From Bigelowiella natans CCMP2755 (Eukaryota > Protista > Cercozoa): DNA of 64,000 nucleotides. Position 1 is the stretch's first letter, and the number at the start of each line of letters is the position of its first letter. Of this stretch, positions 6,801 to 55,488 are shown one piece after another. The stretch is taken from positions 62,001 through 126,000 of the forward strand of contig ADNK01000002.1 in the NCBI GenBank assembly GCA_000320545.1. The letters are read 5' to 3'. The notes below the pieces were generated by a model. That model did not search any database. It was given only the letters and a program-made list of their open reading frames with translations, and had not been told where the DNA came from. Both the position numbers and the translations under genes were made by a program.

Positions 6801-6989
6801 TCAATACAGCGAAAGTTTGAATGCGGATGAACGCATGTGCTCTACCGATTCTCCATTCGAAATGACAATTTGTGTCACATTGTTAGCAGCACAATTTGCC
6901 CTGGTCCCTCGTTCTGAACATGTCATTCTGCCTGGAGCAATGATGAAATCTGGCATGCATAATTTTCTGTTTCAAATGTTCAAAATCTA

Positions 6990-8460
6990 GTGAACATGCA
7001 GATTGCTGGATGCATGTGCGCTGGGTTTCCTTGGCAATCTGATCTGTCTAGCTGTGTGCATTTTTCATTCGATTTTGATTGTCTAGTTGTGTGCTTTCTA
7101 GCTTTGCATCACCTAGTCATGCGTCAATGAAAAACGTTGCAGAGTGTTACACATAGCAAGGCACAACATGCTAGCATGCTGGCATGCAATTTCTCTTGCT
7201 GCACGCTTGAATTGTCCCAACGTGCATGTGCACACACAACAGGAAGGAGCTCAACTGATGTGCACACGTGCACAGACACACTTCACGTCTGGATGTGTGC
7301 AGCAACCAAGCAAGAGAACTGGAATGAGCTAGCCAGCACCAGAGTGGGGTGGATTGGTCAAGGAAAGTGGCTCGATGTGTCACAGGTGCCCCCAGCTAGC
7401 CTGGCATCGTTGATGATGGACATGCACACGCATGGTGAACAGTGCGAGCGTGCAACCGTCTGAACACGTGCCTGCACGTGATGTCCAGATCTGGAGTGAT
7501 GCTGTGGCATACCTGTCCAGCTAGCTAGCTGTGCCCAGCTAGCCAGTCTAGCAGTGCGGGCGTGCCAGCGTGCCACGCTGCACATTCCGATCCAGATTTG
7601 GTTGGACGGCTTGATCAGACCAGCTAGCCAAGCCAGCACGAGAGCACTGGAGCAGTGCACGTGTCAGCACGCACCAGCTAGCTAGCTAGCTAGCTGGCCA
7701 GGGCGCCTGCTGCTAGGAGTCACCCAGTCACGTTGCGCGTTGCGTTGACGTGTTCGGGCGCGACCACGTTGGCACGGAAGTGCACCCTGTGCACACGGAG
7801 ACTGCACACTGGCACAAGTGGTGTGTTTTGTTTCGCTTGACGCGAGCGCCAGAGCGTGCTGGCGTGCACCACTGAGTCCACCGCTGGACCTAGCTAGCTA
7901 GCCAGCTGGAGACCGCTCTGGCGCTCCAGTTTTGGTGCGCTGTGATGCAAAACGAACACGTTTGCTAGTTTGGTGGTTGTTCAGTTGTGACGTGCACGCC
8001 AGCTTTGGTCATGGTTCCATCGAGTTTCGCTGGTTCGGACGCCCGCAGCCTTGGCAGTTGCTTGTTTGCACTTTTTTTTTCCAAAATCTCCTCCAGAGCT
8101 GCAGCCATCGATTTCAAATCGTTCTTGCACACCCGTGTTGAGCAATGAACTCGAAGGTGCAAAAGTCTGACCGAAGTGCTCGATCAGCACGTCCTGCTTT
8201 TCCCACAGACCTGAAAGTTGTCTGAAAGTTCAACGCTGGAATGCCCCGGGTGAACGTGAATGGGTGAACGAATGAAGCTTTTTCAATGCACAAGAAAAAG
8301 AGAAATCTGGAAAGGAGATTGTCGCGATTGGTTGATCATGTTCCAAAGTTTCAAAGAACCCTTTCGATCATGCTCACCATCGAGGTGCAACTGAGATGGT
8401 CCCTGGGAGACACTTTCTGTGCTGCCTCAAATCAGCTCTGCATTTTCTTGAACAATTGCA
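6990..8460. other. TpA-depleted, CTAG-retaining intergenic tract 1
   Basis: Manual count for 7156-8460: one TA outside CTAG (7510) against about 17 CTAG. Rich in CA/TG, with (GCTA)n runs. Confidence 0.9.
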
Positions 8461-8703
8461 TAAATCCCGGGATTGAGAGAGATTTAATGGAAATACCATC
8501 AAGCTGACACCTCTTTCTGCTGCTTCTGTGCACACGCGTGTGAATCAATCTGCGGAACAAGGGCGACGATTGTTCCTTCTTTGCGACATGATGATTGTGT
8601 TGTCGCAGAAGCAGGATGCACCATGATCTTTTTCACCAGCACAACTTTGGCAAATCTACCCCTACATAGACAGGCAGGGCAGACAGCCAGGCAGGCAGAA
8701 AAA

Positions 8704-10606
8704 ATGGGAAACGGTGTGCACCTTCGGAACAAGTACAAAAAGAAAGGGACCCTTGGAGCAGGGGCTTCTGCTAGGGTGTGGCTAGTTGAGGACAAGAAGA
8801 CGAAACACCTTCTCTACGCTGCAAAATCAATTCCAAAGGTGCACATAGGTGCATTACACATGATGTTCATTGTGAAGGATGTGTCAAACTGTGAAACTTG
8901 GTTAACCCAGGCAACCTTGAACAACGATGAACGAGATTTGGTTGAACAAGAAATTAAGATCCTAAAATCGATAAACCACAAGCACTGCTGCAAGCTCATA
9001 GAAGCATTTGAAAGTGAAAAGAAAATTTATATAATTCAGGTTTGTAGATCTAGAGATAGTTCTTTGTAAAATATATGTTGCTACATGGACACACTTATGA
9101 ATTTCTTTCCTATTTTAAAGGAATTAATGAGAGGTCCGACTCTCTTCGATAGATTCCTTCAAAGTTCTACCGAAGATATTACTGAATGGCATGTTGCTGC
9201 AGTTGTACAGAAAATTGCCAAGGCGTTGCACTACCTACACAGTAAGGTAGACGACTGACTGCAGATTTTGTATTACCTGCATTAATACTTTCTAACTCAG
9301 GGAATCATTCACCGAGACTTAAAACCCCAAAACATCATGTTTGCACTAGTAAGAATAAAATGTCACTTTCTTCTATATGGCATTGTGATCTGGGCAATAA
9401 CAATCGGTATTAATGTGCTTTTAGCCCTCCCACAAAGACCGTGCGATGAACTCACTAAAAATCCTTGACTTCGGGTATCATTTTGAGTACTTATCTTCCA
9501 GATTACTTCATGATGAAATCCTTGCGTGTTATATCAGATTTGCGAAGAAATTAACCAAAAAATTCACTCATTCCTCGCGAGGAACCCCCCAATATGTTGC
9601 TCCTGAGGTTGTTTTTAAGAACGATAAAAACAAAATCGAATACGGAACCGGGTAATTGCTTTATCTCTTTTATCTATCACTTTTCGGATGTACTAGAATT
9701 CACCACTTTCACAATTTGTCAGCTGTGATATGTGGTCACTTGGAGTGATCATCTATGAGCTCATGAGTGGAATCTCGCCATTTGAACGCAGAAATACACT
9801 TCCTGCCTTTTTTAAACATGTAAGAAACTTACATGATTCGATGGTTTTCTCTTAGTCATCCATATTAGGTAAGAAAAACAGAAATTCGATTCCCACGAAG
9901 ATATTGGGAGGGAACCTCAAAGGAGGTTCAGCAACTTGTGCTAGGCTTAATGGAAAAAGATCCGTCGAAAAGACTAACAGCTGAGGAGGTATAGTTGCAA
10001 TTGTGTTTACTAAGAAATGTAACATATTGCGTCAATCAAAGGTAATCAAGCATCCATGGGTTGCAAAACATTGTGAGGAATATGAAATCTCCATGACGTC
10101 TCGGCACACGAACAAATATCGCGAATTTAGCAGTAACAACAATCGGGGACGACAAGTCAAAGCCTTGGTGAGACCTTACTTCATAAAATTGTCATTTAAG
10201 TGTGCTTTCTTGCTTTCTTGTAGTCGATCTGCAGAGTTAAGCACTTGATAAATTTCTACGTATAATGTTGATCATGACACTCAAAACTCAAAACAGATCG
10301 CTGTCGATAAGTTTCGAAGAACTGCTAGGGATCTAATCCGTATAGGACGATGGGTAAATACGACCTCTACCATTCCTGCTAAATCACTTCTTCTTGATAA
10401 GGTGAATGATCCCCCCTTTTTTTATAAATACAATTTAGCGTGAGTCCGTAGACACGTTGCTGAAAGGGGTCACAGAGTCTGGACTTGATATAGATCTGAA
10501 AACAATCATCTTCAAAAATTTGGACGATGTTCGGCAATTTCTATGGCATAGCAACACTGCCCAAAGCACATCCTCCGGAGAGTACGATGATAGCGAGAAC
10601 ACCTAG
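8704..10606 (+). CDS. Ser/Thr protein kinase, CAMK group, 11 exons
   Basis: Exons 8704-8838, 8911-9039, 9121-9246, 9301-9348, 9425-9474, 9538-9651, 9723-9819, 9869-9988, 10042-~10167, ~10297-10401 and 10439-10606 give LGAGASARV, YAAK, EQEIKIL, HRDLKPQN, DFG, GTPQYVAPE, DMWSLGVIIYELMSG and DPSKRLTAEEVIKHPW. All catalytic motifs are intact. Confidence 0.93.
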
Positions 10607-10739
10607 TTCCTAATCTTGAAAAAGGATCCCAATCTTAATTGGATGGAGTCACTCCATTCTATTTCAAAGAGTTTCCAAAGCTGTTTCATTGTTCTCATCA
10701 CGTCGTGTCAACATGTATAGCGCATATCATTCTCTTGAA

Positions 10740-12230
10740 AATCATTTCCTCAATTTTGCTTGACACAGCGCGACACATCTAGACATGCATGCATGAATGT
10801 CAAGTCAACACCGCGTGTGGGTTGTGTGAGTGCATCATTTTTCAATCTTCCATTTTTTTTCTGCACAGTGCACATCCGCATGCATCATCATGACAATCAC
10901 CAGCACCTTTAGACCTGTTTTAGCCCCGCTAGCTAGCTAGCCGCTAGCCCGATCGATCACTGCATTCTTGCATTGCAAACAAACATGGCATTCCAACTGT
11001 GACAAAAGCGCAAACGCACTAGCGCAGTGCTAGAGCAGAACGGCCGGTGTGCATGTGCGGCAAATTCAGCAGTCTGGCTAGCTGGCAGTCTAGCAGTCTA
11101 GCAGTGCCAGCTAGCCAGACTAGCAGAGCTAGCTAGCTCTAGAGCTAGCAGAGTGCAACACACACTGGCACTTTCGAATTGCTGGAGCAACAGCATGCAT
11201 TTGAAAGAATGTGCTTCACATCATTCATTCATTTCCTCATTCATTTGAGTCAGCACACCTGCTAGCCTGGACACTCCGATGCTCCTTTCAGGTTCCCTCC
11301 TTCCATGAACCAACCAGGTTGTCAAGTGTCACGCATAGGCGCCAGCACGCTGGCTAGCCAGCTAGCTGCTAGCTGGCACGCTAGCACGGGACGTCCAGAC
11401 GTGGCAACCAGTCCATTTCCCCAATGAGTGGATTCGTGGAGGAGTGTGGAAGAGTTGGCACACTTCATGGTGAAATGCCCACGTGCTCTGCCACAACGTT
11501 CACGTGTTCGCATTGTCTGGTTGTGCCAATTGAGTTGTGTGCACCTTGAACCTTGAACCTGAATCATTCGTTTGCTCATTTTTCAATCAAGAGCTCATCC
11601 ACACATCCTCCCCGTTGAACACTGAACATTGAACTGAGCATTGATGCAAAACAACGTGCGCAAGAACCACATGCTGCATGCCAGCATGGGCGCCTGCAAA
11701 CAAAAATCATTGCGAGGACAATGAACAATGAGAACAATGAGAACAATGATGAAAAACCACACTTCCAAAGTGTGACAAGACACTTGCAATGATGTGCGAA
11801 ATGCAGTGCCTCGAACTGGCTTCAGCTAGTCAGTGAGCACTGACTAGCAAACTAGCGGGATTCATGCAAATTGGCACGTACCAAACATTGAATGCATCAC
11901 AACTAGCAGCCAAATGACGACGACGCAAAGCATCCATCCTGAGCAGGAACTTCCTGACAGCTACGTCCACACGGAGATCAACGTTGGGGACAACCGAGGG
12001 GGCGCCGAGCAAGACTCTGGTCTTGACAGAGTCGGGGGCATCAAAAAATGAAGAGCAAGCAGGAGATGCAGGGCCGAGAGCTGCTCTGATGCCGGAGAAC
12101 AATTGAATTCTCACAGCATTCAAGTGAGCACAATGATGGATGAGGTGGTCAACACTTTGAACAAGCAAGCAGCTTGCCACAAAAGGAAAATTGATTCAAA
12201 AAATCATTTTGAATTTGCTGAAAAGTGTCC
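10740..12230. other. TpA-depleted, CTAG-retaining intergenic tract 2
   Basis: About 5 non-CTAG TA in ~1.5 kb (10910, 10921, 11336, 11879, 11962), against more than 20 CTAG, many in GCTAGCTAG runs. Confidence 0.9.
11718..11814 (+). repeat. Dispersed repeat family A, copy 1 (homologous to 63781-63870)
   Basis: (acaatga)n-gaacaatgat...ttccaaa.tg..acaagaca.ttgca.tg...cgaaa.gcagtgcctcga is shared with 63781-63870. Confidence 0.8.
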
Positions 12231-12389
12231 TGTATTTCTACTTGACGACACAAGATCCTGGTGAGAAAAAGTACAAAAACATTAAGAACAAGAATCAACA
12301 ACGGTCTTATTACCTACCGCCCTTGTTCTACTTCTGCAAGCTAGTAAAGGAGGAGGAGGAGGAATTACCTCTTGCTACAGCAGGGAAAG

Positions 12390-14809
12390 ATGAGCGAGGG
12401 AACGGAAGGAGGAGGTCACGGAAGAAGGAGATTCTCTCAGGATAAACTTCAATGCGCTGAACCCGCTGATGCTGCTGCTTTAGTGCGGGCATATATAAGA
12501 AAGTTACACGAGGAGGAGATTTACGAGATTGACATCCCCCCGATACCTGCTTCAATCATATCATCTTGCCAGTCCGACCAGAAATCCTGCGAGATAGTAT
12601 TTGCTGCAATGGACTCTGATGACCTACGGAAAGTCTTACAGCACGGTAGATCCTTATTCACGCTGAGATTGAGAAGAAGCCTCAATGAATTCTTTGTAGG
12701 AATCCTGTACCGGGGAAAAGTGACCATTCTTGTTTGTTTGCTGAAGAAAGCAGAGAATATACGGTATTATTTCATAACATTATTCCAACTATATAATCAC
12801 TACTATATTCGTGTTCTTCTTATCCCAAAGTTCACATTTGACACGACGACAGGCAACTTTCCAATGTGTATAAGCATTTCCAATATCTTGGTATTTACGG
12901 AGAAGACTCAATAAAGAGCACCATCCTCACCGGAGCCCTCATACAGGCTATTGATCTCTTAGTCAACAGATTTCGTGGTAAAAGCGAATATCCGTTGGTA
13001 TTGATAGACACCCTCGACTTCATCTTATGGCTTCTTGAGTCTCCTAGTGGGGCAGAGGGGAGAGAAGGAGGAGCAATTGAAAGCAAAGGAGAAGGGGAGG
13101 CGGCTGGTTTCAAGATTACCGACAGTGTGACTACCACTAGTCTGGTGGATTTTCTCTTAAATGAAATAAAGGAGGTTTATAACGAGTACTTCCCTGTGAA
13201 GGGTGGGCTGAAAGCTTCGGCTGCTATACTGATTAGGTTGCTCAACATCTTGCAAGGATTGTCTTTTTCAGATAGTACTGGATATCCCTTGAACGAATTG
13301 TTAGAAAAATCTCTGAATGTCTTAAATACTTTTCTTCGAGTCCTTTTGGGTGCGATAAGTGGAGCGCATAAAAGCTTTTGGGTTCTTCAGAAGGGAGGAG
13401 GGAAAGTAGTGGGAGAGGGTGAGGATGATGCGGAAGTGGGAGCAGCAGTAACAATACAGGATCAGTCGATTTTAGTGTCTACTCGGAACAGCTTGCTGGG
13501 CACATTGTGTGGGTTAATAACGAATGTCTTACGAGCGAGTGTGTTCGAATCTTCTTCTCCATCAATTGAAGAGAAGCAGCCCAACATGATGATGTCAGGG
13601 AAGTTGGGGATCAACCTCATCGCACTTCTTAAATTCAGCTTGGAGTACAAGGAGGTTGCTGGCTAAGCAGCTAAAAAACAGCAGTATAGATCTATTGGCA
13701 GATGATATTTTCTTTTTACGTTGTTATGTTGCTTATTCGCAGGTACCTGAATCGCTGATGAATTGTTTGAGGACAGTTCTTCTCTACTTTAATCGGGAAA
13801 GAGACGGGAAATTAGAAACACAAGTAGTAGTAGTAGTAGTAGTAATAGTAGTAATAATAGTCATGTTTCTCCCTTTTTACTTCACTCACAAGCCATCTTC
13901 CTTTCCTCTTTCTCCTCTTCCTCTTTCTTCTCATCATTAGACAATGCTTGAATTACTTCAAGCTATTCAAGACGAGAATCTTAAGACCCAAAAGGTGCAC
14001 TACTACTACTATTACTCCTACTACTACAACAACAACTACATAACAAGTATTTCGAAGCCTAATGCTGATAGCACGACGAATGGGTAGTACATACATACTT
14101 ACGCAGCAAAGTAATCACTGACTGGCCTGTGCATCATAATCCACCTTTGGTAACAATTATAATGATAAAATAATCCAAACTACTACTATCAATAACTTTC
14201 ACTCAAAAGGTCGCCTTGGCAGCGGATTATGTTTCACAGTGGCTTCTTCATTCACGACCACCAATTCGTTTAAAACTCAAAGTGCTTGACACCGTAAGAA
14301 AAGTGATGAAGAAAAGACATAAGATGTTCCGTAGAGGCAAAATCGAAGCTCGGGCGCATTATGTGTTGGTTGCGAGCCTATCAAGAGTAGTGCATGGTGT
14401 TGTCCTGGGTGCTATAGACATCTCTGAGGTGCTAAGGAGCGTCGATGGTAAGGAGCTGTTGCTGGAAAATTTACGTCAGCTTCGAAAGGCTTGCAAGGCT
14501 CATCAGGTACATTTATTATGGATGTATGATGATGATGATGATGACGATTGTGATGACAACGACGGAAGAAGATAACCTACGATGATATCCACCTCCTTAA
14601 TGATAAAGCATTGCTGCTACTGCTTATGTTACCTCTTGTTGTTGTTGTTGTTGTTATCAGAGATATTCACTGTTACTTGTTGTTGTTATGATGAGAGATA
14701 TGCACTGTTACCTCTTCTGTTGCTGTTCTTGTTATGATTAGAGATACGCGCTGGTGGTGGGTCTGGCTGCTAGAATGGTAGAAGATCCCATACTCGTTAA
14801 CAGCATCTT

Positions 14810-14841
<32 letters not shown>

Positions 14842-14886
14842 TAGCGGAGATTCTGGAGGACATATTACACAGTTGTAGTAGTAGTG

Positions 14887-14919
<33 letters not shown>

Positions 14920-17900
14920 ATAGCAAGGATATCAAGGACGAAGAACAATCTACTAGGGAAAATGATGGTAGCTGTACCAGCAGTAGAACAAACAGCGATG
15001 GCACTTGTAAAAAAGAGCATCATCACCAGCATCATCATCATGAGAATCATCTATATGAGACTCTGGTAGAATTACTACGGCTGTTTAAAAACCTTACTTC
15101 TTACCAAAGCAAGGATCTTACACGAAGACTCATCCAGAATTCTTGTTTTAGAAATTTGTTCGTTATTTGTGCACATATGGTACAACAGCAGAAGAAGGCA
15201 GACACGATGGAGAGCAGGATTACATTGCTCCTCCTCCCTCCAGAGAACCAATGTAATCGAATTCTTTCACAATATGATGATGAATACCCGGATCTCAGCA
15301 AAGCTCTCGGACAAATAATGGCTAGACGACAGAATGAAGAAAAAGAAGAAGAAACGAATGATGATGATGATGATGATGAATACGGCGAAGAAGAAGACAT
15401 GAAAGTGCTACAACTACTACCTCGATTGGGATGTTTCAGGGAGTTGATCTCCTTCATTGCTTCTTCTTCCGAACAAAAGCAGCAGCACTTAGAATCTCTT
15501 CTCCTTGATGATGATATTAATACTAAACACAGTAATATTACTGATAATGCTGCCGCCCTTGGCCGACGACGATATCAAAGAAGAGAGGTTGCTATACTAC
15601 AATTCTTAGCAAAGCACATACTACGCAATCTGGATCGATTGTACCCGGAGCTCCCTGCAGCTTTTTCACTCATGATAGGCGGTACTACGGCTGCTGCTCC
15701 AGAAATGGGAACCTCGAAGAAGAGGGAAGAGAAGGAGGAGGAGGAGGAGGAGGAGGAGGAGGAAGAAGAGAAGATCCTATTTGAGATGATGCCTCCGATT
15801 TTAACGGAGAGGGATCTTTATATTTCTACGCCGGTGGCTCCTAAAAGGTTGGAAAATATTCGAAATATTGCAATTCATCGCCAATTATTCGTTCAGTTTT
15901 ATGAGGAGAAAGAGGAGAAAAATCAACTCAGAAAGCAGCAAAAGGAGGAGGGGAAAGATAAAGAGTTGGACGAGGACACTGTAACAGCAACACATAATGA
16001 TAAAGAGAAGAAGAAAGGGGATAATAATGATGATGATGATGATGAGGATGATGTAAAAATGAGGAGTTGGAAAGATGATGGAGATAGTCAAGTCAATACG
16101 GAAGAAGCAAACAACGATGGGCTGGATCATAATAAGGACAACAATCAAGAGAAACATCAACAAATTACGACAACTGGGCTTGATATTCCTAGCAGCCACC
16201 AATCAGAGGATGACGAAAGAGCGGAAAGGAAGAAACATAGTAGTAGTAGCAGTAGCAGCAGCAGTAAGGGAGGACAGAAGAAGGAGGGAGATCTGAAGAG
16301 TACTAGTACTACTACTACTAGTAGTAGTAGTGCACAAAGCAAACAGCCTCGCAGACCACCTGCTGCTGCTGCTGCTGCCAATTTAAATGAAACCGATGTT
16401 GGTATATATGATAATGATGAATCATATAAGAAAAGTTTTTCTTTCAAAGACGTACACAGCGAACTTCTGATGAAGAGGAAGAGAGTAAGAAGGGGCAAAA
16501 AGAGGAATTCTATACTAAGTAACACTAATCCTCTCGCGCTCGATTTAGTCGAAAATGAAGGAGAGGGAAAAGGGCGCAGCACCTCCTTCTCTATTTTGCT
16601 TTCATCGATACCTAAGGATTTTGATCCAGCCAGACGTTTGTATCTTGAGGACACTCGGTTCGCACTTGTGAGGCCATTTCACCACGAAAACCCTCCCACT
16701 ACCAAACAATCCTTCGATGATTGGGCAAAGACAAATTTTAGGGGTAAAAAGAAGAATTTCTTCAGCTCAAAGAAACTCAAGGTGGTGCCTGAGTATCAAA
16801 ATACAGAAATTCAAAAGCGTATTCTCAAGAAACTCCAAGCTGAACTCACTCACCAGGATATGGGAGCGATGAATGATCTCGCACGCATATTCTTCAAGCT
16901 GCTCATGAGCTTTCAAAGTGACGCCCCCTCTGTTCGATGTCCAAGTGAGAAGATAGAGGATATTCAGAGAAACAAGAAAAAGAAGGGGTGGACGAAACAC
17001 CACTCTATGCAAATCACAGATGAGATCTTTGCGCAGATATTGAAGCAAACGAGAGGTGAAGTTGGTAATAATCAACTCCGTAATGGGTTTATCGTTCTAG
17101 CTTTGGCCTGTGCTCAAGGTCTTCGTCCTTCTTCTACTTCTTCCAATGATTTGGAACAATGTGTTAGGCACCATATATGGGATGTGTACCATCAAAATGA
17201 GCAGGATTTCTTGTTGCAAATACTATGCCGCTGCGCTTGGAATGCACTAAATCAGAAGAACCCAAACTATAGCCTCCTCAAGATTGCGAAGATCATCGAC
17301 GAGACAGTGGAGAGGGAGAGGAAATTTTTAATTTTCTTCAAAGTATTCATGAAAAACAAGTATCGTGACATCGTAGAACTCCTTGATGGCGACAACGAAC
17401 GCCATATAGTCAAGACTGGGCTTTTGTATAAGCGGAGCAGTAGCAGGGGGAGAGGGGATGGCAAAATCTCAATAGTAGGAGGAGGAGGAGGAGAGATCAT
17501 GAGGAGTAATAGAAATAATCCAACCGGGGTAGCCACCAGTCAATTTCACCTAAGAAACTTCAAAATTGCGATTGAGGACACCGAATATTCGCATGTTCCC
17601 CAACCACAGTGCGTTCTTACCTACACCAGCCTCGCTGATAGGGGGAGGAAGAAGATCAAAAGCTACGCAATCCAACGCAACGACTTGAATTTCAAACTTA
17701 AAAGCACAGAGGACAACAAGAATCATTGGAAAGTAATCTACGTTGAAAAAAAAAATCTAGAAACAAACATTAAAGAAACTTTCGAGATAAAAGGTGAAAC
17801 AGACGAGGAAACGCTGAAATGGTTCAAATTTGCGAAGAATGCTGCTTCGATTGCACACGGACGGAGATTGATTAGGAGAAGATTGGGCAAAGAATTAGAA

Positions 17901-18551
17901 ATTCCATACCACAAACTCCCATCAAAGGGTAACAGTGGGGGTCTTGGATGGGATCTTACACAGCTTCTACACTCGGAAACAATGCTTCTTGAGTTGTTGG
18001 CTAAAGGAAGGTTTGGGGGACATCTTTCCTTTGAAGAGGACAAACATGTTGATATTGAGCAAGTCGGAGTACTTGTAATTAGGATTACATCATCATCATC
18101 GTCATCTTCAGAGGATATCAGGATTGATGTACCACCATATCGATCAGTGATCATAGGGTATGGCCAAAGAGCTCGTATACCGATCTGCGGTACACATCTC
18201 AGGAAACGCAACGAGGATTTCAGCAAGAAAATATTAATAGAATACAAGGGAGAGAAAAGAAAGTTCTGGACTGTAGCTCAAGTTGTAGATGAAATCATTT
18301 CCAAGGGCAAACGAGAGGAGGAGGAGGAGGAGGAGGAGAGTAGTGGTCATGACACCAAAGATGGATCCCATCGTACGACATTACGATTCAAGCTATTTCA
18401 TAAGAATTTGGGTCTTCAATTGCAGTGGATTTCTGGTACAAGAGTCCGCAATTTTGAGAGGCCTGAAGTTGATTATGGTGGTGCTGCAGTAGTAGTAGAC
18501 CACAAATCAAGAAAGAATATTCAAAAAGAACAAGAAGAGAAAGCTCGTAAA

Positions 18552-18586
<35 letters not shown>

Positions 18587-19730
18587 GTTAGAGAGGGAAC
18601 GAAAGAAGAGAAAAGAAGAGAGTGTTGCCAGATCTTCGCCCCCTCCATTCTTCTCATCACAGGACGCTAATGAGGTTGAGTTGAAGCGAGGGGAACACAC
18701 AAAGTTCATGTCTCGAAAAGTTGGGTGGCAAGGAGGCATTGTTACCGACTACTTCACCTCACCTCATGCTGATGCTGGTAAGTGGTTTCAAATTGAAGTC
18801 TCCAAAAAAAGTGATATAGAAGATATGGAAGTGTACGCATTTGACCGTACCAACACTGCCTTCGGAGGAGATGGCACTGCAACAACAAGAGTTGTTAAGA
18901 TTTCTCAAGAAAAGACTCTATATAAATACTTTTCGAGGTACCAGTATTTCTCTCGCCAATCATCATCTGATTTCTCCACAAGCAAGACTATACGGGTTTT
19001 ATTCACAGTATCGTTCATTGCTTCTGACCTCCACGGAACTCTTAATAAGATTCGTCGCTCGATATCAACATTTTGTGGCATGGAAGAATCTGAAGTGAGA
19101 GTACTTGATGCGGAGTTAGGATACGTGCACTTAGAAGTGGTGTTCCAACAGGAGGGTGAATACCAAAAGGCTGTGGATTTATTTCACAGACTAGCTGAAC
19201 CAAATACTTTCTCAAATCTCTTCCAAGGCTTCTTCAATGAAAGCCATCATCGTCTTCTTGATGTGTCCAATGTACAACTCATCAAACACAAAAGCATAAA
19301 AATGCCCTTACCCCGTCTATCGAATAAATCTCTGCGAAGAATAAAGAATAATAACAAGACGGGTGATAAAGCAACTCAAGGTAGGGGTGGTGCTTCAGAT
19401 GATATTATAAGTTCAAATACCGAGAATATCAACCAATTATCGAAGCTACTGCTTTTGGGGCATTACGACGATGCAAAGATAAACTCAGGTAAGAGAAGAG
19501 GATCAAAGAGGAAGTCGAGGAGGCGTGTGATGAAAAATCGAGAAAACCAGACAGTAGCTGAAAACAAAAATCTCGTCCACATGCTAGGATTTGTGCAAGA
19601 GGTAACCATATATATATTGATTCTATTATAATTTTTTCCTTCGTTAGGACGAAAGTCTGATTGATGATTATTGCAGGCTTTGGAAAAGCACTGTGACAAG
19701 CTTGAAACTACTAAGAAGCAAGTGGGTTAA
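12390..19730 (+). CDS. Very large (~2,200 aa) protein: divergent RhoGAP-like N-terminus, helical region, MyTH4 domain, PH domain
   Basis: ATG 12390, several exons, one 4,860-nt exon (14742-19601) and last exon 19677-19730 (ALEKHCDKLETTKKQVG*). MyTH4 signature QITDEIFAQILKQT...RNGFIVLALACAQGLRPS (~16780-17250). PH signature IVKTGLLYKR...FEIKGETDEETLKWFKFAKNA (~17400-17845). ADAAALVRAYIRKL...PPIP weakly resembles RhoGAP. Confidence 0.8.
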
Positions 19731-19889: not shown

Positions 19890-21000
19890 GTCTAGATGTC
19901 CCCACGTCCCGCGCAGCAGACTATGTAGCTAGCAGCGAATCTATTGCATGATAGCCGCGTAGTTGCTAAGGTCAGTGTTGCACACGACTAAAAATTAACA
20001 TAGCGCTGCATCTTCTTCACGCCACTCTAGCACTGTGCATCACAACGTGTACGATGCATGTCAACACACAATGACATCGGCTATTTGCTAGCTAGCTTGC
20101 AGACACATCGCACATGCAACATTGTACATGCACACTACTAGACTTGCACTGCTAGACTGCTGTGCTGATTGATTTGCATGATGAATGGATATCCGATGCA
20201 AACAGAGCAACGCACATGAAGACTCTCGGGTTCACTCGTAGTTCACTCCCTGCTAGCCTGTCTCGGATCACTGGAGACAGTAGACAGGCTCAACCTGCCT
20301 AGTGTTGCTACATCATGCTAGCATGCGTGGCTGGCAACATTGGCAATTTCAAATTTTCGAGAGGACTGTGCTAGTGTGCACTGCAGCCGAAGCTTAGCAC
20401 GCACGATGCGCAGTCCAGCAGTGTGCAATGTCATCGAAGATTTGGATCATTTGCTTTCTTGACCATTGCCACGCCACACGTCACCGCTTGAGGAACCAGC
20501 TCACTGCCACAGCAATGCGCGACGACAAAACAAAAAGATTGACATCTCTAGATCTGATGAGAAGGAACTGCAGCGCGAAATGCGCGACATTGCAGACCGA
20601 AACAACATGCATTTGATTGCATGAAACACATCATGGCGGAGACCAATAGATTCGACATTACATGCGCTGTGGCCGCTCGCTGCATTGCTAGATTGCACAG
20701 CTACATGAGGATGACCATTGAACAAATTTAATTGATCAACTACATTCTTCTTGTACTAGCACAATTTCCAGTGTATTGACAACGGACATCGTATGCTCTT
20801 GCACTATGCATTCAATCTATCCACTCGCCATCATGATGATAACGCTACAAAAGTGGTCAGCACATCGCGTGATGTTGATATCGCTACATGTATGTGTACG
20901 CTGATATACGATAACAACGACGAGGCACAACATAAGCGCTGTAGCCGCTGCTTTGCATAGCTACATCAGGATGACCATTGAAAGGATTTAACCACTTCAT
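19890..21000. other. Partially TpA-depleted tract between convergent gene ends
   Basis: 20400-20645 has no TA except one CTAG; the flanks keep some TA. Rich in gcatgc/tgca/ctag. Confidence 0.7.
20661..20993 (+). repeat. Dispersed repeat family B, two copies (20661-20734 and 20931-20993)
   Basis: Core gcgctgtRgccgct...ttgcaYagctacatSaggatgaccattgaa is present twice; a third copy is inverted at 28582-28645. Confidence 0.85.
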
Positions 21001-21081
21001 TATATCCGTCTAACGATAACAACGAAGTCAGGAGTATTTCATTTTGATGACCAGCATTATAACTAGATAACCACATCTCGG

Positions 21082-21122: not shown

Positions 21123-22471
21123 TCATGTGCACGGTTTGTTTGTAGACCGCTCTATGACTTCGGAAGGCCTTACAAATGAATAAGTATCCTCTCCATCCCA
21201 CACTATCGTCATTCGTTTTTTATCGATCTCTGTCAGTTGGGAGGTGAAAAGCATTTCAAAATGGAAGAAGCTAAAACATAGTATTCCATGATTGGGGGCT
21301 GCTTTGGAGCATGCATTTTTCCAATGATAAAATTGCTCTAACTACTCTATTCTGTGATATAGTGTCGTTACGTCAATTGTTTTGCAGATGTGTATTATTC
21401 ACCTAAGATTCTTCCAGGGTATTTGCTCCCATCTTCCCACGTTGCAATAACAGTAGTTCCTACCGAGCACTACAGAGGGAGGAGGAGGCAAAACAGTAGA
21501 ATCGTATCATCCCGTTAGATTTTGTTGCGGCTGCTTGTCTGTTAGCGTTTTTCGCCATCACAACCACAATTCTTAGTTAGTACAGAGACGATCACCGCTG
21601 ATGTTCTTTTCCTCTTCTCCTTCTTCTTCTTCTTCTTCTTCTCTTTTTTCACTTTCAGATGGCTTTTCATTGGGATTCCTGTGTTAGGCAAATTAGCAGC
21701 GGCTAACGACTGTAACCAATTATGATGATGATTATAACCACAAATGTTTGATCCAAGCAATAGAGTACGACGACGACGACGATGATGACGACCACGAAAT
21801 TACTTGCATTGTCCGACTCCTTTAAACGGCCTAACATAAACTCTTCATATGCATCGGAGTGCATGTCTTTAGGCTGGACATCTGAACCATAATTTCTGAC
21901 AACATGACAACAATCACACACCAGAATGATGATAATAATAATAGTATTAATAATAACAATATATGTGTTAACAGAAGAAGTGTAAGAGCTTTGCTCGGTG
22001 AAACGCAAATGAATTATGACTAATGTTGAGATAAATTTCGCATAAACATCATCTCGTCCACGGCTCCATGATTTCTTCATGTTTTCAACGAATGCTACAA
22101 ACATGTTGTTGTTGTTGTTGTAGTATTTGTGTGCAGCAGCAGCAGCACAATGTGATTCATTCGATCTAGTAGTAATAGTACCTAAGCTGAACAACAAGCG
22201 GTGGTTCAAGCACGTAGCTTCTAGGATCAACAACAGCCTCTTCTATCTGTAGTTTCAATGTAGTATCATCACCATCATATATCATCATCATCATCATCAT
22301 CATCATTATGTATCTTCCTCCTCACCACCATCTTCATCATCACGCATGCATACCTTGTTAGCATCAAATCCCTTTGGAGGATTGGAACTAAAACAAACAA
22401 TCAATCGATGATGAATGTATGTCGTCATGAGATCGTTGAAGAGAACGAAAGAAAACAAGAGATTCTAACGG

Positions 22472-26340: not shown

Positions 26341-26844
26341 AGAGCCCCAAAAAAATTAGGCAGCTTATATTTAATAGTTAGAATATATTTATTAATAAGA
26401 ACATGACACAGCCCTTGCGCTCCGGGAAATCTACGTTGAGATGCCAAACTTCTCAGCAATAAGAATTCGACGTCAAATTGTACAGAGCACAGTCCTGACT
26501 CAATAAAAGTGTACATAGAAATGAAGCAAAATCAATCACTAAAGCTATACTGAAAATGTCAAAAATTAATCGTGGCTCTCGAGTTACAGCTGATTGTTTA
26601 CAGACGAAACAAAGTGAAGAAAAATGAGCGGCGAAATGGACTGCATCATTTCACGTTTTGTCTGATGGAGAAACCATGAAAATCAAGATCAATAATGAAT
26701 AAGTCAAATCATGAAAGTTGTTAAGCATCGAGAAGCAACTAGTAAGAATGTCAACATGGAAATCCTGGAGACTGTGATTGTCTTCACGATCGGCAACGAA
26801 AGATTTCAATGGTGCTGCTGTGTGCAGTTTTTTAGCACGTAGAA

Positions 26845-28950
26845 ACATTTTTTCAAGTGCATGAATGGTTCAAATTCATGTCAGTGATGATCGAAAAGAA
26901 TCGATGTGCACACATGAATGATCGTTTCTAGGCAACGCCTTGCTGAACAATGCATGCAGCATCGTGTGCAATGTGATGCATCACCTGGTAGCACGTCTGG
27001 GGGCACCAGACGCACAGATCTAGACCTGGATGCCTGCAAGTGGAGCATTGGGAATCATCACGTGCAGCCTGTGGGTCGGCAGCTAGCAGCAGTCCATGCC
27101 AGTCTAGCAGTGCTAGCAGTGGTCATCTAGGCACGCCAGCATGCTTGTGATCTCTGGATCTGGTCATGACGATCCCGCCGACGCACGTGCAGCATCGCAG
27201 ACGCAAACAACAACATGCTAGCTGTCATGCCAAACTGAGCGAGCGTGGACACGAGAGATGGGTCGATCCACAGGCGATGTGAGTCACAAAGCGTGTGTGT
27301 TTGAACTCTGATCACGTGCAACTTGCTCTGCACATTGTCGTGCTGCTCCACAGCTAGACAGCTCAGACAGCTCAGACAGGCCGAAATGCCGAACTGGCGA
27401 AGCACTTCGAATTTGTGTCGAACGCGCTTTGGAACCATCGAGAACTCACTCAGAAACTCCCGACAGTTTTGTCCAGGCGAGTCCACCTCAGTTCCGTGCG
27501 CGTCAAGTCTTCGGTTCCGAATCGGACTCCCACAGCTAGCACAGCTAGACAGGTGACCTCCACGCGTGTCTCGATGGACGTTCGTCCGGCGGCACTCAGT
27601 TCTCCCTGGCTCCTGTGGTTCTGACACGTTTGGACGTCGTCAAGAGGGTCATTGTCACTTTTTTTGTTGTTGCACCATCGTTCTTGTTGTCATTGTGGTT
27701 GTTCGGACAGACAGTGCAACACCTCCCTCAACCAGTCAAGCCCGAAGGACAACACCCACGTGGCAGGCAGGTCTGGCAGGTGCTCTGTTCACAAGTCTGC
27801 GATGCACTTCACCTCGTTGGGCTTCGAGCTTCGAGAGTTCCGTGAGACTCGTGCCTTGCTGTCATCCTTTTCCAACGTCCCCGCGTTGTGTCCCATTTGG
27901 GGCACTTTCACCCTGGAAAAGGACACCCCATTCACAGCAGCGTCTCTCTGTTGACGTGCCTTTTGCCGTTCGGTCAGCGGTGGGGAAAGCTAGAAAGGGT
28001 CTTTTGTCCCGCCACGCCAGCACGGTGTCGCGTGCTGGCGTGTGGTCATCCCACGTGAGTGCATCGAAGTCTTCAGTGATCGAACGTCAAGTGCGTGCGA
28101 ACATCATCCTGGAGGGTTTCACCTCGGAGAAGACTCTGGACCGTGCTGGCGTGCAAGTTGCACGACGTTGCCACTTTGCTCCTTCCCACTTGCTTCGCAA
28201 CGCGACGTTCGTTTTCGTGGTTTCTCACGACGATCCTTTCAATTGCTCCAATGGAAACACTTCTTTCCTTCTTGCTTTCTTTCTTCTCTCTTGGCTTTTG
28301 CTGCCACTTCGCACTGTTGTTCGTTCCTGCATTTGTCACGTGTTGCACCTTGGTTTGTCCGCGCGCGTTGCCGCACAAGTGACGTCACCAGCAGCACGAG
28401 CAAGCTGCAGGAGGGTCTTCATTCAGGTGCAATGAACGCTCCTCCTTTTTCCCCTTTTGAAACTTGGCACACGGGACAGCAGAGTGATGTGACGTCACTG
28501 CACTTTCACGAGGCAGGCTGGTAGGTGCTTTGACTGGCTGAGTCTCGCTGGCTCGACTTGCAAGACGGTGCAGTGAAACAACAATTGCACTTTTTCATTG
28601 GTCATCCCAATGTGGCTGTGCAATGCCACGGCCACAACGCTGATGTTGCATCCACTTGTTTCCGTTGTGATGTCGTTCACGCTTGCAAACGATTGTTCTT
28701 GTTGCACCCCATTCGTTGTCACTTTGTTCCAAAACGTCACGAATCCTCCACTGAACAGACCACGTTGCTTCGTGAAGGTGAGGCTGTCAAGCTGGATGTG
28801 CCTCAAACAAGAAAAACAGAAGGAGAGAAAGAGGCACAAAGGAGTGGGGCGTGAAGCAATCGCAGCGTTGTGAAGGTTGTGGGCAAACAAACAAACGTGA
28901 TGATGGACAATGCTCCTCTTCCTCAACTTGCACGCACTCAAATGACTCAC
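26845..28950. other. TpA-depleted, CTAG-retaining intergenic tract 3 (most extreme)
   Basis: Only two non-CTAG TA found in 2.1 kb (GTAG at ~26989 and ~28522). Confidence 0.92.
28582..28645 (-). repeat. Dispersed repeat family B, inverted copy 3
   Basis: Reverse complement catcagcgttgtggccgtggcattgcacagccacattgggatgaccaatgaaaaagtgcaattg aligns with 20661-20734 and 20931-20993. Confidence 0.8.
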
Positions 28951-29159
28951 TACATCGCATCGATGTTATTGTCGCACCTTGCAAAATACCTGCATTACAG
29001 ACTTCATCCTGCAAAAACCGGCCAACACCCACACGCGATTCGGCCTGATGGAGGGCAAGCAGGCCCCAGCGGTACTTCTCCAGATACACCTCCTTCTCTC
29101 ATAAATTAAGGTTCACCTGTCTGCTGCTTTATGTATTTGTAATATGTTAATACTAGGGG

Positions 29160-37829: not shown

Positions 37830-38400
37830 TAGTTATAGATTATCAGCCCGCATGATGCGCGCGACAAAGCTGGTGCTGAGCGAGCAATAGAGAGCACAAA
37901 CTGTATGTTTTGCAAAGTATTCAGCCGGTCCAACGTTGAAACCCATCACATTGTTCCAGCGTGCATGTAGCAGACTAAGACTAATAAATATACGCATTTG
38001 ATCAATAAGCGCTACAGCAGCGTAACTCTAGAACTAGCTTAGATGAAGCTTACTTGTGGTGTCACCGTAAGAATTGCCTTGCTACTCCCTCTTTAGCTCA
38101 TTGTGACACCAGGCCATCTAGCCATCCCTACTAGATGCAAGCATGCTAGACTTGGCGCATCGAACTGTTGTCATGTGCAGATCGATACATGCGCAGTTGT
38201 GCATACATGTTGACGTACTTGTTGAATGGGCTTGCACACACACACACACACGCCAATCGTATCATTTCTGCTGCTCACATGATTGTCATTGAATAGGTAA
38301 GTAACAATACAAACAAATGCTATGCCACTTGCTACGATGCTTTGCTGATATTGTAAATGAACAGCCCTCATGCACATAGCACTGACAGTTTGTATGGCTG
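37830..38400. other. Weakly TpA-depleted, RY-alternating tract between the convergent VPS52 and SEC8 ends
   Basis: Clusters of gcatgc, ctag and tgca (e.g. 38117-38250), with TA reduced but not absent. Confidence 0.5.
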
Positions 38401-39322: not shown

Positions 39323-39824
39323 CTCAAAAATATGGTATTTATAGGATAGATAGTATCTGTCGTTCGTATGTATGTTGTACTGTCATCATATTACTCTGCC
39401 TTCGCCATAGCTGCAAGATGGAAAAAACAATGCATCTGCACCTCCACTCGCAAGGTAAACAAGCATCTGTGTAGTAATAGTAGTAGTAGTAGTAGTAGTA
39501 GTAGTAGCAGCAGCAGTAGTAACAATGTACAAGAGTCAGATGCAGTAGTAGTAGTAGTAGTAGTAGTAGTAGTTGTAGTAGTGGTAGTAGAGTAAACATC
39601 AATTACGGTGGCATGGTAGGTAGATAGTCGCAAGTTCGCAACAACAACAATAATAACAACAACAACAGTGGATTGATTGATTGATTAATTCCTTTATTGA
39701 TTCTTACTCATGTCCTCTACTAGTGCTCAACTACCTCTCTGCCAACTGCTGAAATCTCTGAGCTACTTGATACGTTTTTCTTTCGACCATTCCTGCTGTT
39801 CCTATGGTAGTAGTACAACCTTGC

Positions 39825-43676: not shown

Positions 43677-43971
43677 TATCAATCTTAAATCGAATCATCA
43701 TCATCACCACACAAAAATGTAGTACAATCGGAAGTAATCATTTACTCATCATTTTCTTCATGTTGTTTGCTTCCGTGTTATAGGAGTACTCAATCCATTT
43801 CACATCAAATGTCTCGACTACTATTACTACTACTACTACTACTGCTGCTACTATTACTACTACTACTGCTACTACTACTACTTGTGGCCAATGTCACGCC
43901 TGCTTCTTCAGTTTTCTTCACCTTACATATTGTATTTCAAGACAATAATAATGGAAATTTTAAAAAGATAA

Positions 43972-45639: not shown

Positions 45640-48461
45640 GCTACTACTATTATTACTGTTGTAAGGAGTTGAACAGATGTCCTGAGCTTGTTGCTGCTGC
45701 TGCTACTCCTGCAGTACCACGTGAGCTACTACTACCATTCGTTGTCGTCGTCATCATCATCATATTATCCCAAGGATCATCCGCCACCACTCCCACTACA
45801 CCCAATTCACGACTGGATGATGATGGCCGTTTTTGCGAATACCTGTGATGATAGTAGTGTGCTGTTGATAGCGCTGTTTCAAACAGCAGGAAGAAGAACA
45901 ATAATAATAGCTGCTGGGAAAGTACAATTGGCAGCTGTTGCAACTGAACATCGTTGTCTAAATCCTCATATCATCTATCAAGTTTAATGCTAACTGACTT
46001 TTTTTGGAGGTTCTCTGCCTCCGCATCGATTATGTGTTGCAACTCGTTATGAACCTGCAGGGATGGGGATGGGATGGAATGAAATAACGAGGTGGATAAT
46101 CATCAATGGAATTACGAATTACTACCCTATTTCTTAGAGCTGATTGACAGGAGGGCAGCCTTCCCAACTGAACGAAAAGAAGAAACAATTAAATCAATGT
46201 TTCACGAGTAATACATACTACGGATTGAACCTTCGAGAGCGACTCGATAACAATATCAATAAGCAATGCTGAATTTCCTTCCGGATTTCCAAGGTACCTA
46301 ATATTCGCATAAGTAAGAATCTTAGTAAGGTCCAACCAACGACCATGAAGAATCGAACGCTTCAATGCAAGCCAAAGTGTGCGAACTAGTAGCTAATAAG
46401 AAGATTACGTGTCGGATTTCTCTTCTTTCAGCAACTCAAGAATCTTTTTCTCCTCCTCCTCGTTTTCGTTGTCTGGAGGCTGCTGAGATTCCTCGTACGA
46501 CAGAAAATTACCGCCTTTGGTGCTATTATTTCCTGCTCCTCCATCGCGGAATGGGGAGAACTTGTCTGCGCCTCGAGGCTCGAAGTACTATAACCAATAT
46601 GATATCATTTCCAAAATAATGGTAGGTGCTATTTTTATTATGGAAGTGTTGATGCCAATATACCAGTGCTACCCTTAGTAATTTTATTACTTCTGCTACT
46701 ACTGTTAATAATAATAATAATACTTGCTTCTCCTTTTCCATAGATGGTATTGCTACTGTCAGTATCGACTAAAACTACAATTATACCCTTTCAGAATTCC
46801 TGAATGATCCTCCCCTCTTGGTAAAACTGCCATCCTTCTCATCGCCACCTTCAATCGAACATTAAGAATGTAGCATAGTGATTTAATTCAAAACAAGACC
46901 GAGACATCAAACTTGTTCTATATTGCTATCATTTATTTAGAAAAGTGAGAGCATCAACCTCCCCTCATACTGCCGTGGAAGCTTGAGCCAGGCCGACTAT
47001 TATTATGTGAACTACTATTTCGATGGTTACTGACGCTTGTGCTAATTCCATCTGAGAGAGTGTTTATGAGAAGATACAGCATCATCATAGTTATTAATCA
47101 AATAGACTTCATACGAGTTTATCAGCATACCAGATGCTGGAACTGTGATATCATTGCGATCTTCCGTCTCTGAGTAAATATGCTTATGCAAGTGGTCAAT
47201 TAGCATTTCCTGGATTGCGTTTCTCTGAGTGAGCATGTGCTGCCTTATCTGAACAATAACAACAACGCACGACGTTATCGAGATGCAGGCTGCTGCCAAT
47301 AAAACAGAAACGTGAAGAATCGAAATTGCACAATCACTGGTTTTTACATCGTCTAGAGCCCCAAAACTGCCGAGATCATCGGCAAGGAGTAGCGAAAGGG
47401 TATGGATAACAAGCTGCACAGCGTGTAGATACCTAATAAACCACAATCCTTAGGGGACACAGAATGTCTAATCGTCTTCGTGATGATATAACATCGTATG
47501 TACATCTTATAATGAACCAGTATAGCAAACTCAATAAATGTAGATAGTGTTTATTTACTGTTTCCGTGCCAAGAATTGCTCCACTTGTTTCGGGACACCA
47601 ACGACATATTCCACTTTGTCAAGAATTGCCTTGGGAAAGAGAGATAGAGATGATGAGAGTAAGAACAAATTCTCAAGTTGGCCAAAGAATCATTTCTTCG
47701 TTCCCACCAGAATCTTTTCTAGCCTCTTGTTTTCTAGATGTCTCTCTCGGAGCGAATCGGGTTTTGTAACCTGTGTTGAAGTTGTCTTAAAATTTGTAAG
47801 TTCACAAATAATTTGATGCGAAATAATACCAGAATCCGGCGACTCTGCTTTAAGTTTTCCAGAAGATTATCCACCTTCCTTTGCGTACCTCCAAACCGAG
47901 ATAGAATCTGGCTAAATGAAGACGTTGCCGTGTTGAAGCCTTCCCGAGAGAACAATAAAAAGGACGGAAATAGGTCAGATTGCACCGAATGTTACAACAC
48001 AATGGAAGAACCTTTGGTGTAGACATCCAGGATCAAATCAACAATCTTATCTATCGACGATTCCCTGATAGAAAATAATGCATTCGTGTGTGACCAGAAA
48101 ACATTACATAGCATGATATCTGCGAGTAATTTCGTGCATATTTGCAAAATTAGCTCTCTTTTGAACAAATTGCCGTATCTAGGCACTCTCAGCGCATTCC
48201 AGATTAGACTAACATGACTCGCAAAATTTCTTTGTCTCACCATTTTTTCAGCTTTCTCTCATTCTCCTTCCAATACTTGAAGGGGTTAAAATTATGCTCG
48301 CTTTGAAACTCCTCCTGTGTTATGTGGTGCCGTTAAAAACATGGGTAAGCATACTCGAGGCAACCGACCGGGTAGTTTTTCGACAGAGTATTAATCTTTT
48401 TCATATCGAGCGTCCCTCCAGGAAGGCTCATCCGGCTCTTCATCCGACTTCGATTGCTCAT
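38513..48461 (-). CDS. SEC8: Exocyst complex component Sec8 (EXOC4), many exons
   Basis: Spliced peptides EEFQSEHNFNPF, DVYTKGFNTATSSFSQI, ILDKVEYVVGVPKQVEQFLARKQYLHAV, LIDHLHKHIYS, NPEGNSALLIDIVIESLSKLGRL, and C-terminal GVLQITRNLYALQQNLTNI...FDRARSYFEL, stop at 38513. ATG 48461 (MSNRSRM) is inferred. Confidence 0.9.
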
Positions 48462-48721
48462 CTTTCAATGGTGTCTTTTCCTCCCCACTGTGTCCCAACA
48501 GTCATCTTAGGCCGACCGTGGTGTTTTAATTCCCACACATACTTCAAGTTCCAACGAACTCAATACACATATCTTATACAAGGTTGTATGTAGTTTCATC
48601 AGGAAAAATAGAAGTTAGTATATTGTGGACCTGAGGGTGGGTCAAAAAACAACGAGAGCGCTGAGGAATAATAGCTCGACCCTGATCGCACTGAACCAAT
48701 CTCGAGAATCTGATTTGTCAG

Positions 48722-50034: not shown

Positions 50035-50199
50035 TTCGTCTTGGTAAGATTCTTACAAGTTCGTAATTTCTATATTGTTTACAATATATTGTACGAATTA
50101 TGCGAAAGCAAGCGCCAGGACTCATGAAACAAAGTAAAATGAAACCAGTATCATAGGTGTAATTATATTTTGCTAAATATTCGGCGAGTGTCGAAAACA

Positions 50200-50900: not shown

Positions 50901-51126
50901 GCTTGCTTACTTTATTAGATCTTACCCATCGATGAGTTAAAAATAAATAAACGTTTACCAGCGCTCAATGTAGCATTATATATGGTTAGAATCGCAGCAT
51001 CCCTTAATTTAGTTGCGCACGGGTTCGTGCCTTACAGCTGCATACAATAGTCCACAAATAATTATATTGTGCTACATCAGATGACCAACACACATAAGAT
51101 CCTTTAAGGTTGCACGAAGATTTAAG

Positions 51127-54490: not shown

Positions 54491-54531
54491 GAGATAATTA
54501 ATTAGAACTATTATTGCGTCTAGCTAATATA

Positions 54532-55454: not shown

Positions 55455-55488
<34 letters not shown>

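Follow-up and report, generated by a model that had tools for sequence, protein, structure and literature searches.

How can a dinucleotide be largely erased from the spaces between genes, and yet persist there within one particular tetranucleotide? The question is raised by a stretch of 64,000 nucleotides (nt) from the genome of the cercozoan Bigelowiella natans CCMP2755 (GenBank assembly GCA_000320545.1, contig ADNK01000002.1, positions 62,001 to 126,000 of the forward strand), which we shall call the window, and in which positions are counted from its first letter. In four intergenic tracts of this window, termed T1 to T4, the dinucleotide TA is scarce, and 88 of the 106 copies that remain lie within the palindrome CTAG, as against 139 of 4419 outside (binomial P ~3e-113). 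A first-pass annotation of this DNA had claimed that nearly all the remaining TA is in CTAG, and in this it was right. We show here that TA has been replaced by CA and TG, and that CTAG is the most resistant context without being immune. We tentatively favour the view that this resistance would lie in the specificity of the mutator for the bases flanking TA.

Intergenic tracts purged of TA

The tracts were delimited by the gaps between successive TA dinucleotides that are not part of CTAG. In the window these have a mean spacing of 15 bp. Ranked by length, the first eleven gaps (1533, 951, 543, 539, 429, 415, 356, 348, 271, 265 and 252 bp) all fall within five places, the four tracts and a fifth, T5, while elsewhere the maximum gap is 132 bp.

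T1 (6961 to 8657) lies upstream of a protein kinase gene, gene A, and retains 28 TA where 99.7 are expected, 22 of them in CTAG (Rho TA 0.28, Rho CA+TG 1.62). T2 (10726 to 12233; 30 TA against 98.1 expected, 25 in CTAG; Rho TA 0.31, Rho CA+TG 1.65) is the spacer between gene A and the following gene B. It runs from about 120 bp past the gene A stop codon to about 160 bp ahead of the gene B ATG, the gene ends being taken from RNA contigs and translation; the contigs used throughout were from runs guessed to be RNA, together with one raw RNA run. In the core of T2, from 10900 to 11400, CTAG accounts for 20 of 23 TA. The most thoroughly purged tract is T3 (26841 to 28951; 13 TA against 115.7 expected, 11 in CTAG; Rho TA 0.11, Rho CA+TG 1.52), which contains the gap of 1533 bp and stops some 210 bp short of a predicted ATG at 29161 that is followed by the GT start of an intron, in a gene inferred from sequence only. 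T4 (62560 to 64000; 35 TA against 91.4 expected, 30 in CTAG; Rho TA 0.38, Rho CA+TG 1.68) reaches past the end of the window and so extends beyond the part seen here. T5 (~19980 to 20700), downstream of gene B, is only half purged, with 25 TA against 46.8 expected and a Rho CA+TG of 1.70. Its TA comprise 11 CTAG, nine half-sites, by which we mean words of the form NTAG or CTAN, and five others. Only short pieces (20 to 101 bp) are common to the tracts in plain and TA-collapsed blastn comparisons, and the idea that they are copies of one element was rejected on that ground.

Together T1 to T4 comprise 6757 bp, and 18 of their TA are outside CTAG. A tally of the 16 NTAN words inside and outside the tracts of the window shows how uneven the survivors are. 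After the 88 CTAG come four GTAG, three CTAC and two each of ATAG, TTAG and ATAC; ATAA, CTAT, GTAC, TTAA and TTAC occur once each, and the remaining five words do not occur at all. Individual sites singled out earlier are confirmed, namely the run gctagccagctagctgctagctggc at 11352 to 11377, TTAG at 10910 and 10921, ATAG at 11336, CTAC at 11962, 63817 and 63935, GTAG at 26989, 28522 and 63204, and CTAT at 63469.

What replaced the missing TA can be read from the composition. The observed-to-expected ratio of TA is 0.26 inside the tracts and 0.85 outside, while the ratios of CA and TG are 1.60 and 1.62 inside compared with 1.20 and 1.22 outside. Inside the tracts AA stands at 1.08 and AT at 0.83, and CG is 0.72 both inside and outside. 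It is thus TA in particular that has been lost, with a corresponding gain of CA and TG; the GC content is 0.51 in the tracts against 0.40 outside. CA and TG have similar counts in each tract save T2 (179 and 133, respectively) and are mixed in every block of 300 bp, so both strands have been hit. Thus a TA-directed process has erased TA from these tracts, with CA and TG as products, sparing the bodies of genes including their introns (Rho TA is 0.85 in the introns and 0.62 in the exons of gene A, and 0.76 in the introns of a further gene, E). Such a process had been proposed in the first-pass annotation, and is supported both by these ratios and by the repeat copies described below.

Some other processes fit poorly. 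GC-biased gene conversion is unlikely given the AA and AT ratios, with TA alone being lost. Editing of RNA from one strand followed by retro-insertion is unlikely because CA and TG are so intermixed. A promoter island of the CpG-island type is marked by a raised CpG ratio, and here it is the same on either side of the tract boundaries.

CTAG is inherited, resistant and decaying

Compared with the expectation from composition, CTAG is 3.3 times as frequent inside the tracts and 0.68 times as frequent outside, so protection alone cannot explain the number present. Most belong to a longer word; 41 of the 88 are GCTAGC and 72 are within GCTAG or CTAGC, and in the tracts AGCTAG is enriched 20.8-fold and GCTAGC 30-fold. 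The same (A)GCTAG(C) words fill two stretches that have not been purged. One is IG4 (50376 to 50895), a spacer of 520 bp with 49 TA against 39.6 expected (Rho TA 1.24), which we take to represent the sequence before purging. The other belongs to a metagenome locus, L002, with 11 CTAG in 200 bp. The ancestral sequence must therefore have been CTAG-rich already, and the abundance of CTAG in the tracts is partly inherited.

Arrays of period 4, such as the pure (AGCT)5 array identified by Tandem Repeats Finder at 7676 to 7695, hold 26 of the 88 CTAG, leaving 62 outside them. The (GCTA)n runs remarked upon in the first-pass annotation are indeed present, but in view of these numbers and of the short matches between tracts the excess of CTAG does not come from a single such family. 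We also aligned the CTAG arrays of T1 and T4, where CCAG or CCAA in T1 stands opposite CTAG in T4; this was not counted, since the homology of low-complexity runs is doubtful.

The resistance of CTAG extends beyond the longer word. There are 16 CTAG in the tracts that lie outside (A)GCTAG(C), a density of 2.37 per kb compared with 1.36 per kb outside the tracts, whereas all non-CTAG TA together fall from 74.8 to 2.7 per kb, a drop of about 28-fold. CTAG is thus by far the most resistant TA context, whether or not it forms part of the longer motif.

Yet CTAG is resistant rather than immune. Its single-transition products CCAG and CTGG reach 15.0 per kb in the tracts against 4.2 outside, a rise of 3.54-fold where the other CA and TG contexts rise 1.24- to 1.38-fold, and GCCAGC/GCTGGC is enriched 20.6-fold. 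The share of these words that is intact, CTAG/(CTAG+CCAG+CTGG), is 0.91 in IG4, 0.73 in T5, 0.60 in T4, 0.57 in T2, 0.37 in T1 and 0.31 in T3, declining as the density of non-CTAG TA goes from 75 to 0.9 per kb (Spearman 0.83, n = 6, P = 0.04). Since the intact share tracks the purge, the direction of change is from CTAG to CCAG and CTGG, which are decay products and not precursors; part of the CTAG has decayed. The alternative that CTAG is regenerated from CCAG and CTGG, raised in the first-pass annotation, has the direction wrong. The unpurged IG4 has ten CTAG to one CCAG or CTGG, the share of the latter words rises with the purge, and transitions at the CA and TG of the tracts would yield 7.4% CTAG as opposed to the 83% observed.

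The extent of decay can be estimated by assuming ancestral densities, taken from the sequence outside the tracts and from IG4, of ~18 to 27 per kb for CTAG, 27.0 for half-sites and 47.8 for other TA. On this assumed ancestry, survival would be 49 to 73% for CTAG, 6.6% for half-sites and ~1.9% for other TA; 30 to 55% of the ancestral CTAG would have turned into CCAG or CTGG, depending on the tract; and CTAG would decay at 0.08 to 0.18 of the rate in ordinary contexts. With losses estimated on this scale, CTAG is not simply protected, as had been supposed.

Half-sites among the survivors

The TA that survive outside CTAG tend to retain one half of it. Twelve of the 18 in T1 to T4 are NTAG or CTAN, as are nine of the 14 in T5, giving 21 of 32 for the five tracts combined. 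Three baselines can be set for this proportion: 0.361 outside the tracts, 0.407 (48/118) in five unpurged CTAG-rich stretches, and 0.287 for fresh transitions. Against these the probability of 12 in 18 is 0.008, 0.023 and 0.0009, respectively, and that of 21 in 32 ranges from 0.0007 to 0.008. The first-pass annotation had put the half-sites at about ten of a dozen survivors. The enrichment stands; the count does not, there being 18 survivors. Within the tract boundaries used here it had missed six in T1, a GTAC at 11879 and a GTAG at 62665.

Eight of the 12 half-site survivors keep GCTA or TAGC, and some half-sites may be CTAG words in which a flank was lost by ordinary mutation. A model in which the flank on each strand acts separately predicts 17 to 21 half-site survivors compared with the 12 seen, which is of the right order. 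The half-site effect is likely to be real, but modest.

Repeat copies as a direct comparison

A repeat of about 100 nt allows purged and unpurged versions of one sequence to be compared. A purged copy lies inside T3 (28555 to 28660, plus strand), and was compared by alignment with five copies that are not purged, namely two in the window (20675 to 20775 and 20905 to 21030, both on the minus strand) and three from metagenome loci L001 to L003. Six sites carry TA in at least three of the five unpurged copies, and at all six the copy in T3 reads CA or TG. From unpurged to purged the changes are TTAT to GCAA, GTAA to GTGA, TTAA to TTGC, GTAG to GTGG, CTAC to CCAC and TAA to TGA, of which GTAG to GTGG and CTAC to CCAC agree with what protection by a C preceding the T would produce.

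The repeat has a conserved core, TTCAATGGTCATCC, and is found at 60 to 140 and 365 to 445 of L001, 200 to 300 of L002 and ~930 to 1030 of L003. In L001 there are two copies in inverted orientation, separated by about 250 bp, an arrangement that suggests a small mobile element; in L002 the repeat is flanked on one side by an unpurged CTAG array and on the other by a stretch free of TA. A Pfam scan of the open reading frames (ORFs) from L002 and L003 gave no match.

A different element of about 100 nt, 80 to 85% alike in its two copies, occupies the gene-proximal ends of T2 (11718 to 11818) and T4 (63781 to 63874), where it is preceded by (GAACAATGA)n at 11723 to 11749 and 63680 to 63805. RNA contigs cover it to a depth of up to ~4000 and are rich in variants; raw reads are mostly first mate on the minus strand. 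This element is multi-copy and transcribed, and it has no Rfam match. Very high, variant-rich contig depth is found over the multi-copy stretches at 11688 to 12204, 20477 to 20993 and 63344 to 64000. Among the variants in the RNA runs are A>G at 11905 inside a CTAG (three of eight raw reads), T>C at the surviving CTAC at 11962 (eight of 12 raw reads, and the entire contig depth in two runs), and an A>G change at the surviving CTAC at 63817-63818. All three are changes of TA to TG or CA, but they fall in multi-copy stretches and possibly reflect paralogs, so we have not used them as evidence.

How is CTAG spared?

Our preferred explanation, held with some reserve, is that the resistance of CTAG is an intrinsic flank specificity of the mutator. 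On both strands of the four tracts, TA would have been turned into CA or TG by a TA-directed mutator that works several-fold more slowly when C precedes the T, which is equivalent to a G after the A on the other strand. If the flank on each strand acts separately, decay would be slowest in the CTAG palindrome and of intermediate speed in half-sites. The process would be of the same kind as the live TpA hypermutation of B. natans discussed below, possibly a deamination of adenine on DNA, although a thymine-modifying route is also conceivable. We favour flank specificity because it accounts at once for why CTAG of every flavour is retained, for its graded decay and for the excess of half-sites.

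A fuller statement of this explanation is more tentative. It would hold that the mutator reads at least four bases, with C before T blocking each strand independently, that CTAG decays 6- to 12-fold more slowly with half-sites intermediate, that such a fingerprint argues against an ADAR-like enzyme preferring UAG and would serve as a direct assay by which the enzyme could be named, and that the process rewrites native spacers beside expressed genes too. The first-pass annotation had spoken of an enzyme disfavouring one flanking base per strand. The moderate half-site enrichment and the model count of the right order speak for the part that concerns the flanks; a methyl mark, a bound protein or selection may account for the pattern in place of an enzyme's specificity.

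A number of observations weigh against intrinsic flank specificity. The additive model over-predicts the half-sites (P(≤12) is 0.02 to 0.12), and the half-site signal comes from 18 to 32 sites and an assumed ancestral composition. Half-sites make up three of ten survivors in one partly purged metagenome segment, and 13 of 21 in another. The asymmetry of products, which should reveal the flank that matters, does not point clearly to either one (1.24-fold for CCAH+DTGG compared with 1.38-fold for CTGH+DCAG), and one paralog site (CTAA or TTAA to CTGA) breaks the rule that C before T protects. The preference of ADAR for a G on the 3′ side does not predict resistance of CTAG. Furthermore, the 72 CTAG in (A)GCTAG(C) are upstream of expressed genes, where a binding site could plausibly be under selection, and the 26 in arrays are prone to slippage that could regenerate CTAG.

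The last two points lead to an account that is unlikely but by no means negligible, in which the mutator hits all TA alike and CTAG is kept by selection on an (A)GCTAG(C) cis-element, or by slippage and expansion of (AGCT)n arrays. Such an account can call on the prevalence of the longer words and the 20.8-fold enrichment of AGCTAG, on the presence of these words in the unpurged IG4, on the position of tracts directly upstream of the expressed genes A and B, and on the CTAG within arrays. Against this, most CTAG are not in arrays, those outside the longer word are fully retained, and an estimated 30 to 55% decayed anyway; moreover, selection acting on the palindrome does not predict an excess of half-sites. 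A literature search on AGCTAGCT returned, judging from the listing, papers on cis-elements of rice and one on conserved intergenic sequences of Plasmodium, and a search on CTAG, TpA and promoters gave nothing relevant.

We regard it as improbable that CTAG is shielded from a mutator that could otherwise act upon it, whether by methylation of a base specifically in CTAG (deamination would be blocked by N6-methyladenine), by a bound protein or by sequence-specific repair of the lesion. The step in survival from half-site to CTAG is far larger than that from no match to half-site, the estimates being 1.9% for no match, 6.6% for a half-site and 59% for CTAG, as if the whole palindrome were being read, and this is what shielding would lead one to expect. 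However, a factor that reads CTAG leaves the half-site excess unexplained, CTAG decays in step with the purge, and no sign of modification is visible in the sequence.

Lastly, it is very improbable that selection, and not hypermutation, maintains the tracts as native promoter islands poor in TA, or that their CTAG was made from CCAG and CTGG by deamination of cytosine, because although the tracts end 50 to 250 bp before start codons beside TATA-like boxes, and no viral or transposon domain is found in the 18 ORFs lying wholly inside them (141 were scanned), the paralogous copies show TA to CA or TG at six of six sites, the spacers IG4 and IG5 have normal TA, CpG is not raised, and regeneration conflicts with the frequencies given above. 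Promoter islands carrying a GCTAGC factor site were our initial reading, dropped once the paralogs showed these changes.

Genes, spacers and transcription around the tracts

The genes of the window are closely packed and have short GT..AG introns of 53 to 235 nt, as judged from RNA contigs. Gene A (8705 to 10606, plus strand) has 10 exons, with GT..AG joints in the RNA contigs and a Pkinase match; its ATG is at 8705 and its stop codon at ~10604. Gene B, also on the plus strand and assigned from RNA contigs and translation, is long. It starts with an ATG at 12390 and includes a single expressed exon of 1625 codons (14742 to 19628), in which a match to MyTH4 is sub-threshold only. The ORF of this exon had no match in the Atlas, and its residues 600 to 1625 had no homologue at E ≤ 0.001 among the scored candidates. 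RNA contigs further define gene D, from 44.1 to 50.4 kb, and gene E, from 50.9 to 52.6 kb, both on the minus strand, and an LSM gene from 53.38 kb onwards.

Each tract fills the space between genes, and T1 stops where the transcripts of gene A begin. The depth of RNA contigs is 0 to 19 in the tract cores compared with 57 to 208 in gene A, and in T4 it is low from 62677 to 63343. Not every spacer has been purged. IG4, bounded by the 5′ end of gene D on one side and the 3′ end of gene E on the other, has ordinary TA, as has IG5 (52639 to 53382), where Rho TA is 0.85. Two further clusters of CTAG, at 54040 to 54420 (six CTAG) and 38010 to 38160 (five CTAG), resemble IG4 in having a normal TA content.

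The TATA-like word CATAAAT is found at 8459 to 8465 and 29100 to 29106, at or just beyond the gene-proximal edges of T1 and T3, and around and downstream of both words TA is back to normal. The purge may pass over the core promoter, or the TA there may be kept by selection.

In bulk the window has a GC content of ~0.40 and is rich in short trinucleotide microsatellites, in genes and spacers alike, among which the ATC/GAT and ACT/AGT classes predominate. Tandem Repeats Finder returned 172 rows for the window, with arrays for example at 39471 to 39594, 22265 to 22342 and 43817 to 43882; among the rows shown there is no period-3 array in T1 to T3. These microsatellites are the likely explanation for the occurrence of GTAG and CTAC at 1.9 times expectation outside the tracts. 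Three long joints in the RNA contigs (15041 to 17474, 45704 to 58131 and 45763 to 60035) have non-canonical ends (GA..AT, AC..GA and AT..TT), and each is anchored by just 20 to 23 letters on its shorter side. They are probably jumps of the assembly between microsatellites, and not splicing.

None of the 18 ORFs contained in the tracts matches Pfam, and the longest tract ORF (292 amino acids, in T3) has no homologue. No Rfam family reaches its gathering score, the sub-threshold snoRNA-like matches being confined to a (CAT)n run with none in T2, and no tRNA was found in the window.

Comparison with known systems

The process itself is already in print, in one preprint. In its main text, Mettrop et al. 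(bioRxiv 10.64898/2026.01.13.699255) describe a TpA-specific local hypermutation in B. natans that converts TpA to CpA or TpG on either strand, depleting TpA and enriching CpA+TpG in sharply local blocks, and the genome is otherwise ordinary. The live targets are given there as two inserts, one of a giant virus (186 kb) and one of a virophage (25 kb), the mutation rate in live lines as raised ~1000-fold, with 231 de novo TpA mutations in mutation-accumulation lines, and adenine deamination by an ADAT2 homologue is proposed, with an ADAT2/ADAT3 pair named as candidate. The same text sets cut-offs, a maximum of 0.43 for Rho TpA and a minimum of 1.52 for Rho CpA+TpG, over at least three consecutive 1-kb windows. 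T1 to T4 all pass both Rho cut-offs, but at 1.4 to 2.1 kb, with T4 running past the end of our window, the tracts are shorter than three such windows. Another likeness is the restriction to A:T to G:C changes at TpA, which is seen here at six of six repeat sites, a small sample, and in a CpG ratio that is the same inside and outside the tracts. The targets described in the main text of the preprint are viral inserts, whereas ours are spacers beside expressed host genes, with no viral or transposon domain. As to a foreign origin, the tract ORFs are without Pfam matches, and T2, T4 and T3 contain multi-copy elements. The terms CTAG, 'flanking' and 'tetranucleotide' have no occurrence in the main text of the preprint, though its supplements, with lists of individual mutations, may hold a context effect; the effect of CTAG and half-site context is thus not in that main text. 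A further search of the literature for TpA hypermutation returned the same preprint only.

With one report of TpA hypermutation so far, a tetranucleotide specificity would, if true, be the first biochemical handle on the process. It could be checked against the 231 de novo mutations, and would discriminate between candidate deaminases. For annotation, a sign of old purged DNA would be TA left only as CTAG together with an excess of CCAG and CTGG. That the process can occupy complete spacers beside expressed genes matters for deciding between two roles, a defence directed at foreign DNA and a feature of a chromatin state.

[quoted passage not shown] However, RIP converts CpA to TpA, so that TA goes up and GC down, while the present tracts are its mirror image, with a TA ratio of 0.26 (0.85 outside) and a GC content that goes from 0.40 to 0.51; on these values a RIP-type process was set aside.

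ADAR and the ADAT/TadA enzymes share with the process an A-to-G outcome and a requirement for T or U on the 5′ side of the target, and the 5′ T fits the tracts. ADAR favours G on the 3′ side of the edited A, and the substrates of ADAT include anticodon loops with U-A-G. These preferences do not predict that TAG within CTAG should be the most resistant context.

In enterobacteria CTAG is scarce and CCAG and CTGG are in excess, which is attributed to very-short-patch repair. The words are the same as those found here, CTAG on the one hand and CCAG and CTGG on the other, linked by single transitions. The difference is that the enterobacterial bias acts genome-wide and against CTAG, whereas in the tracts of B. 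natans CTAG is the word that survives best.

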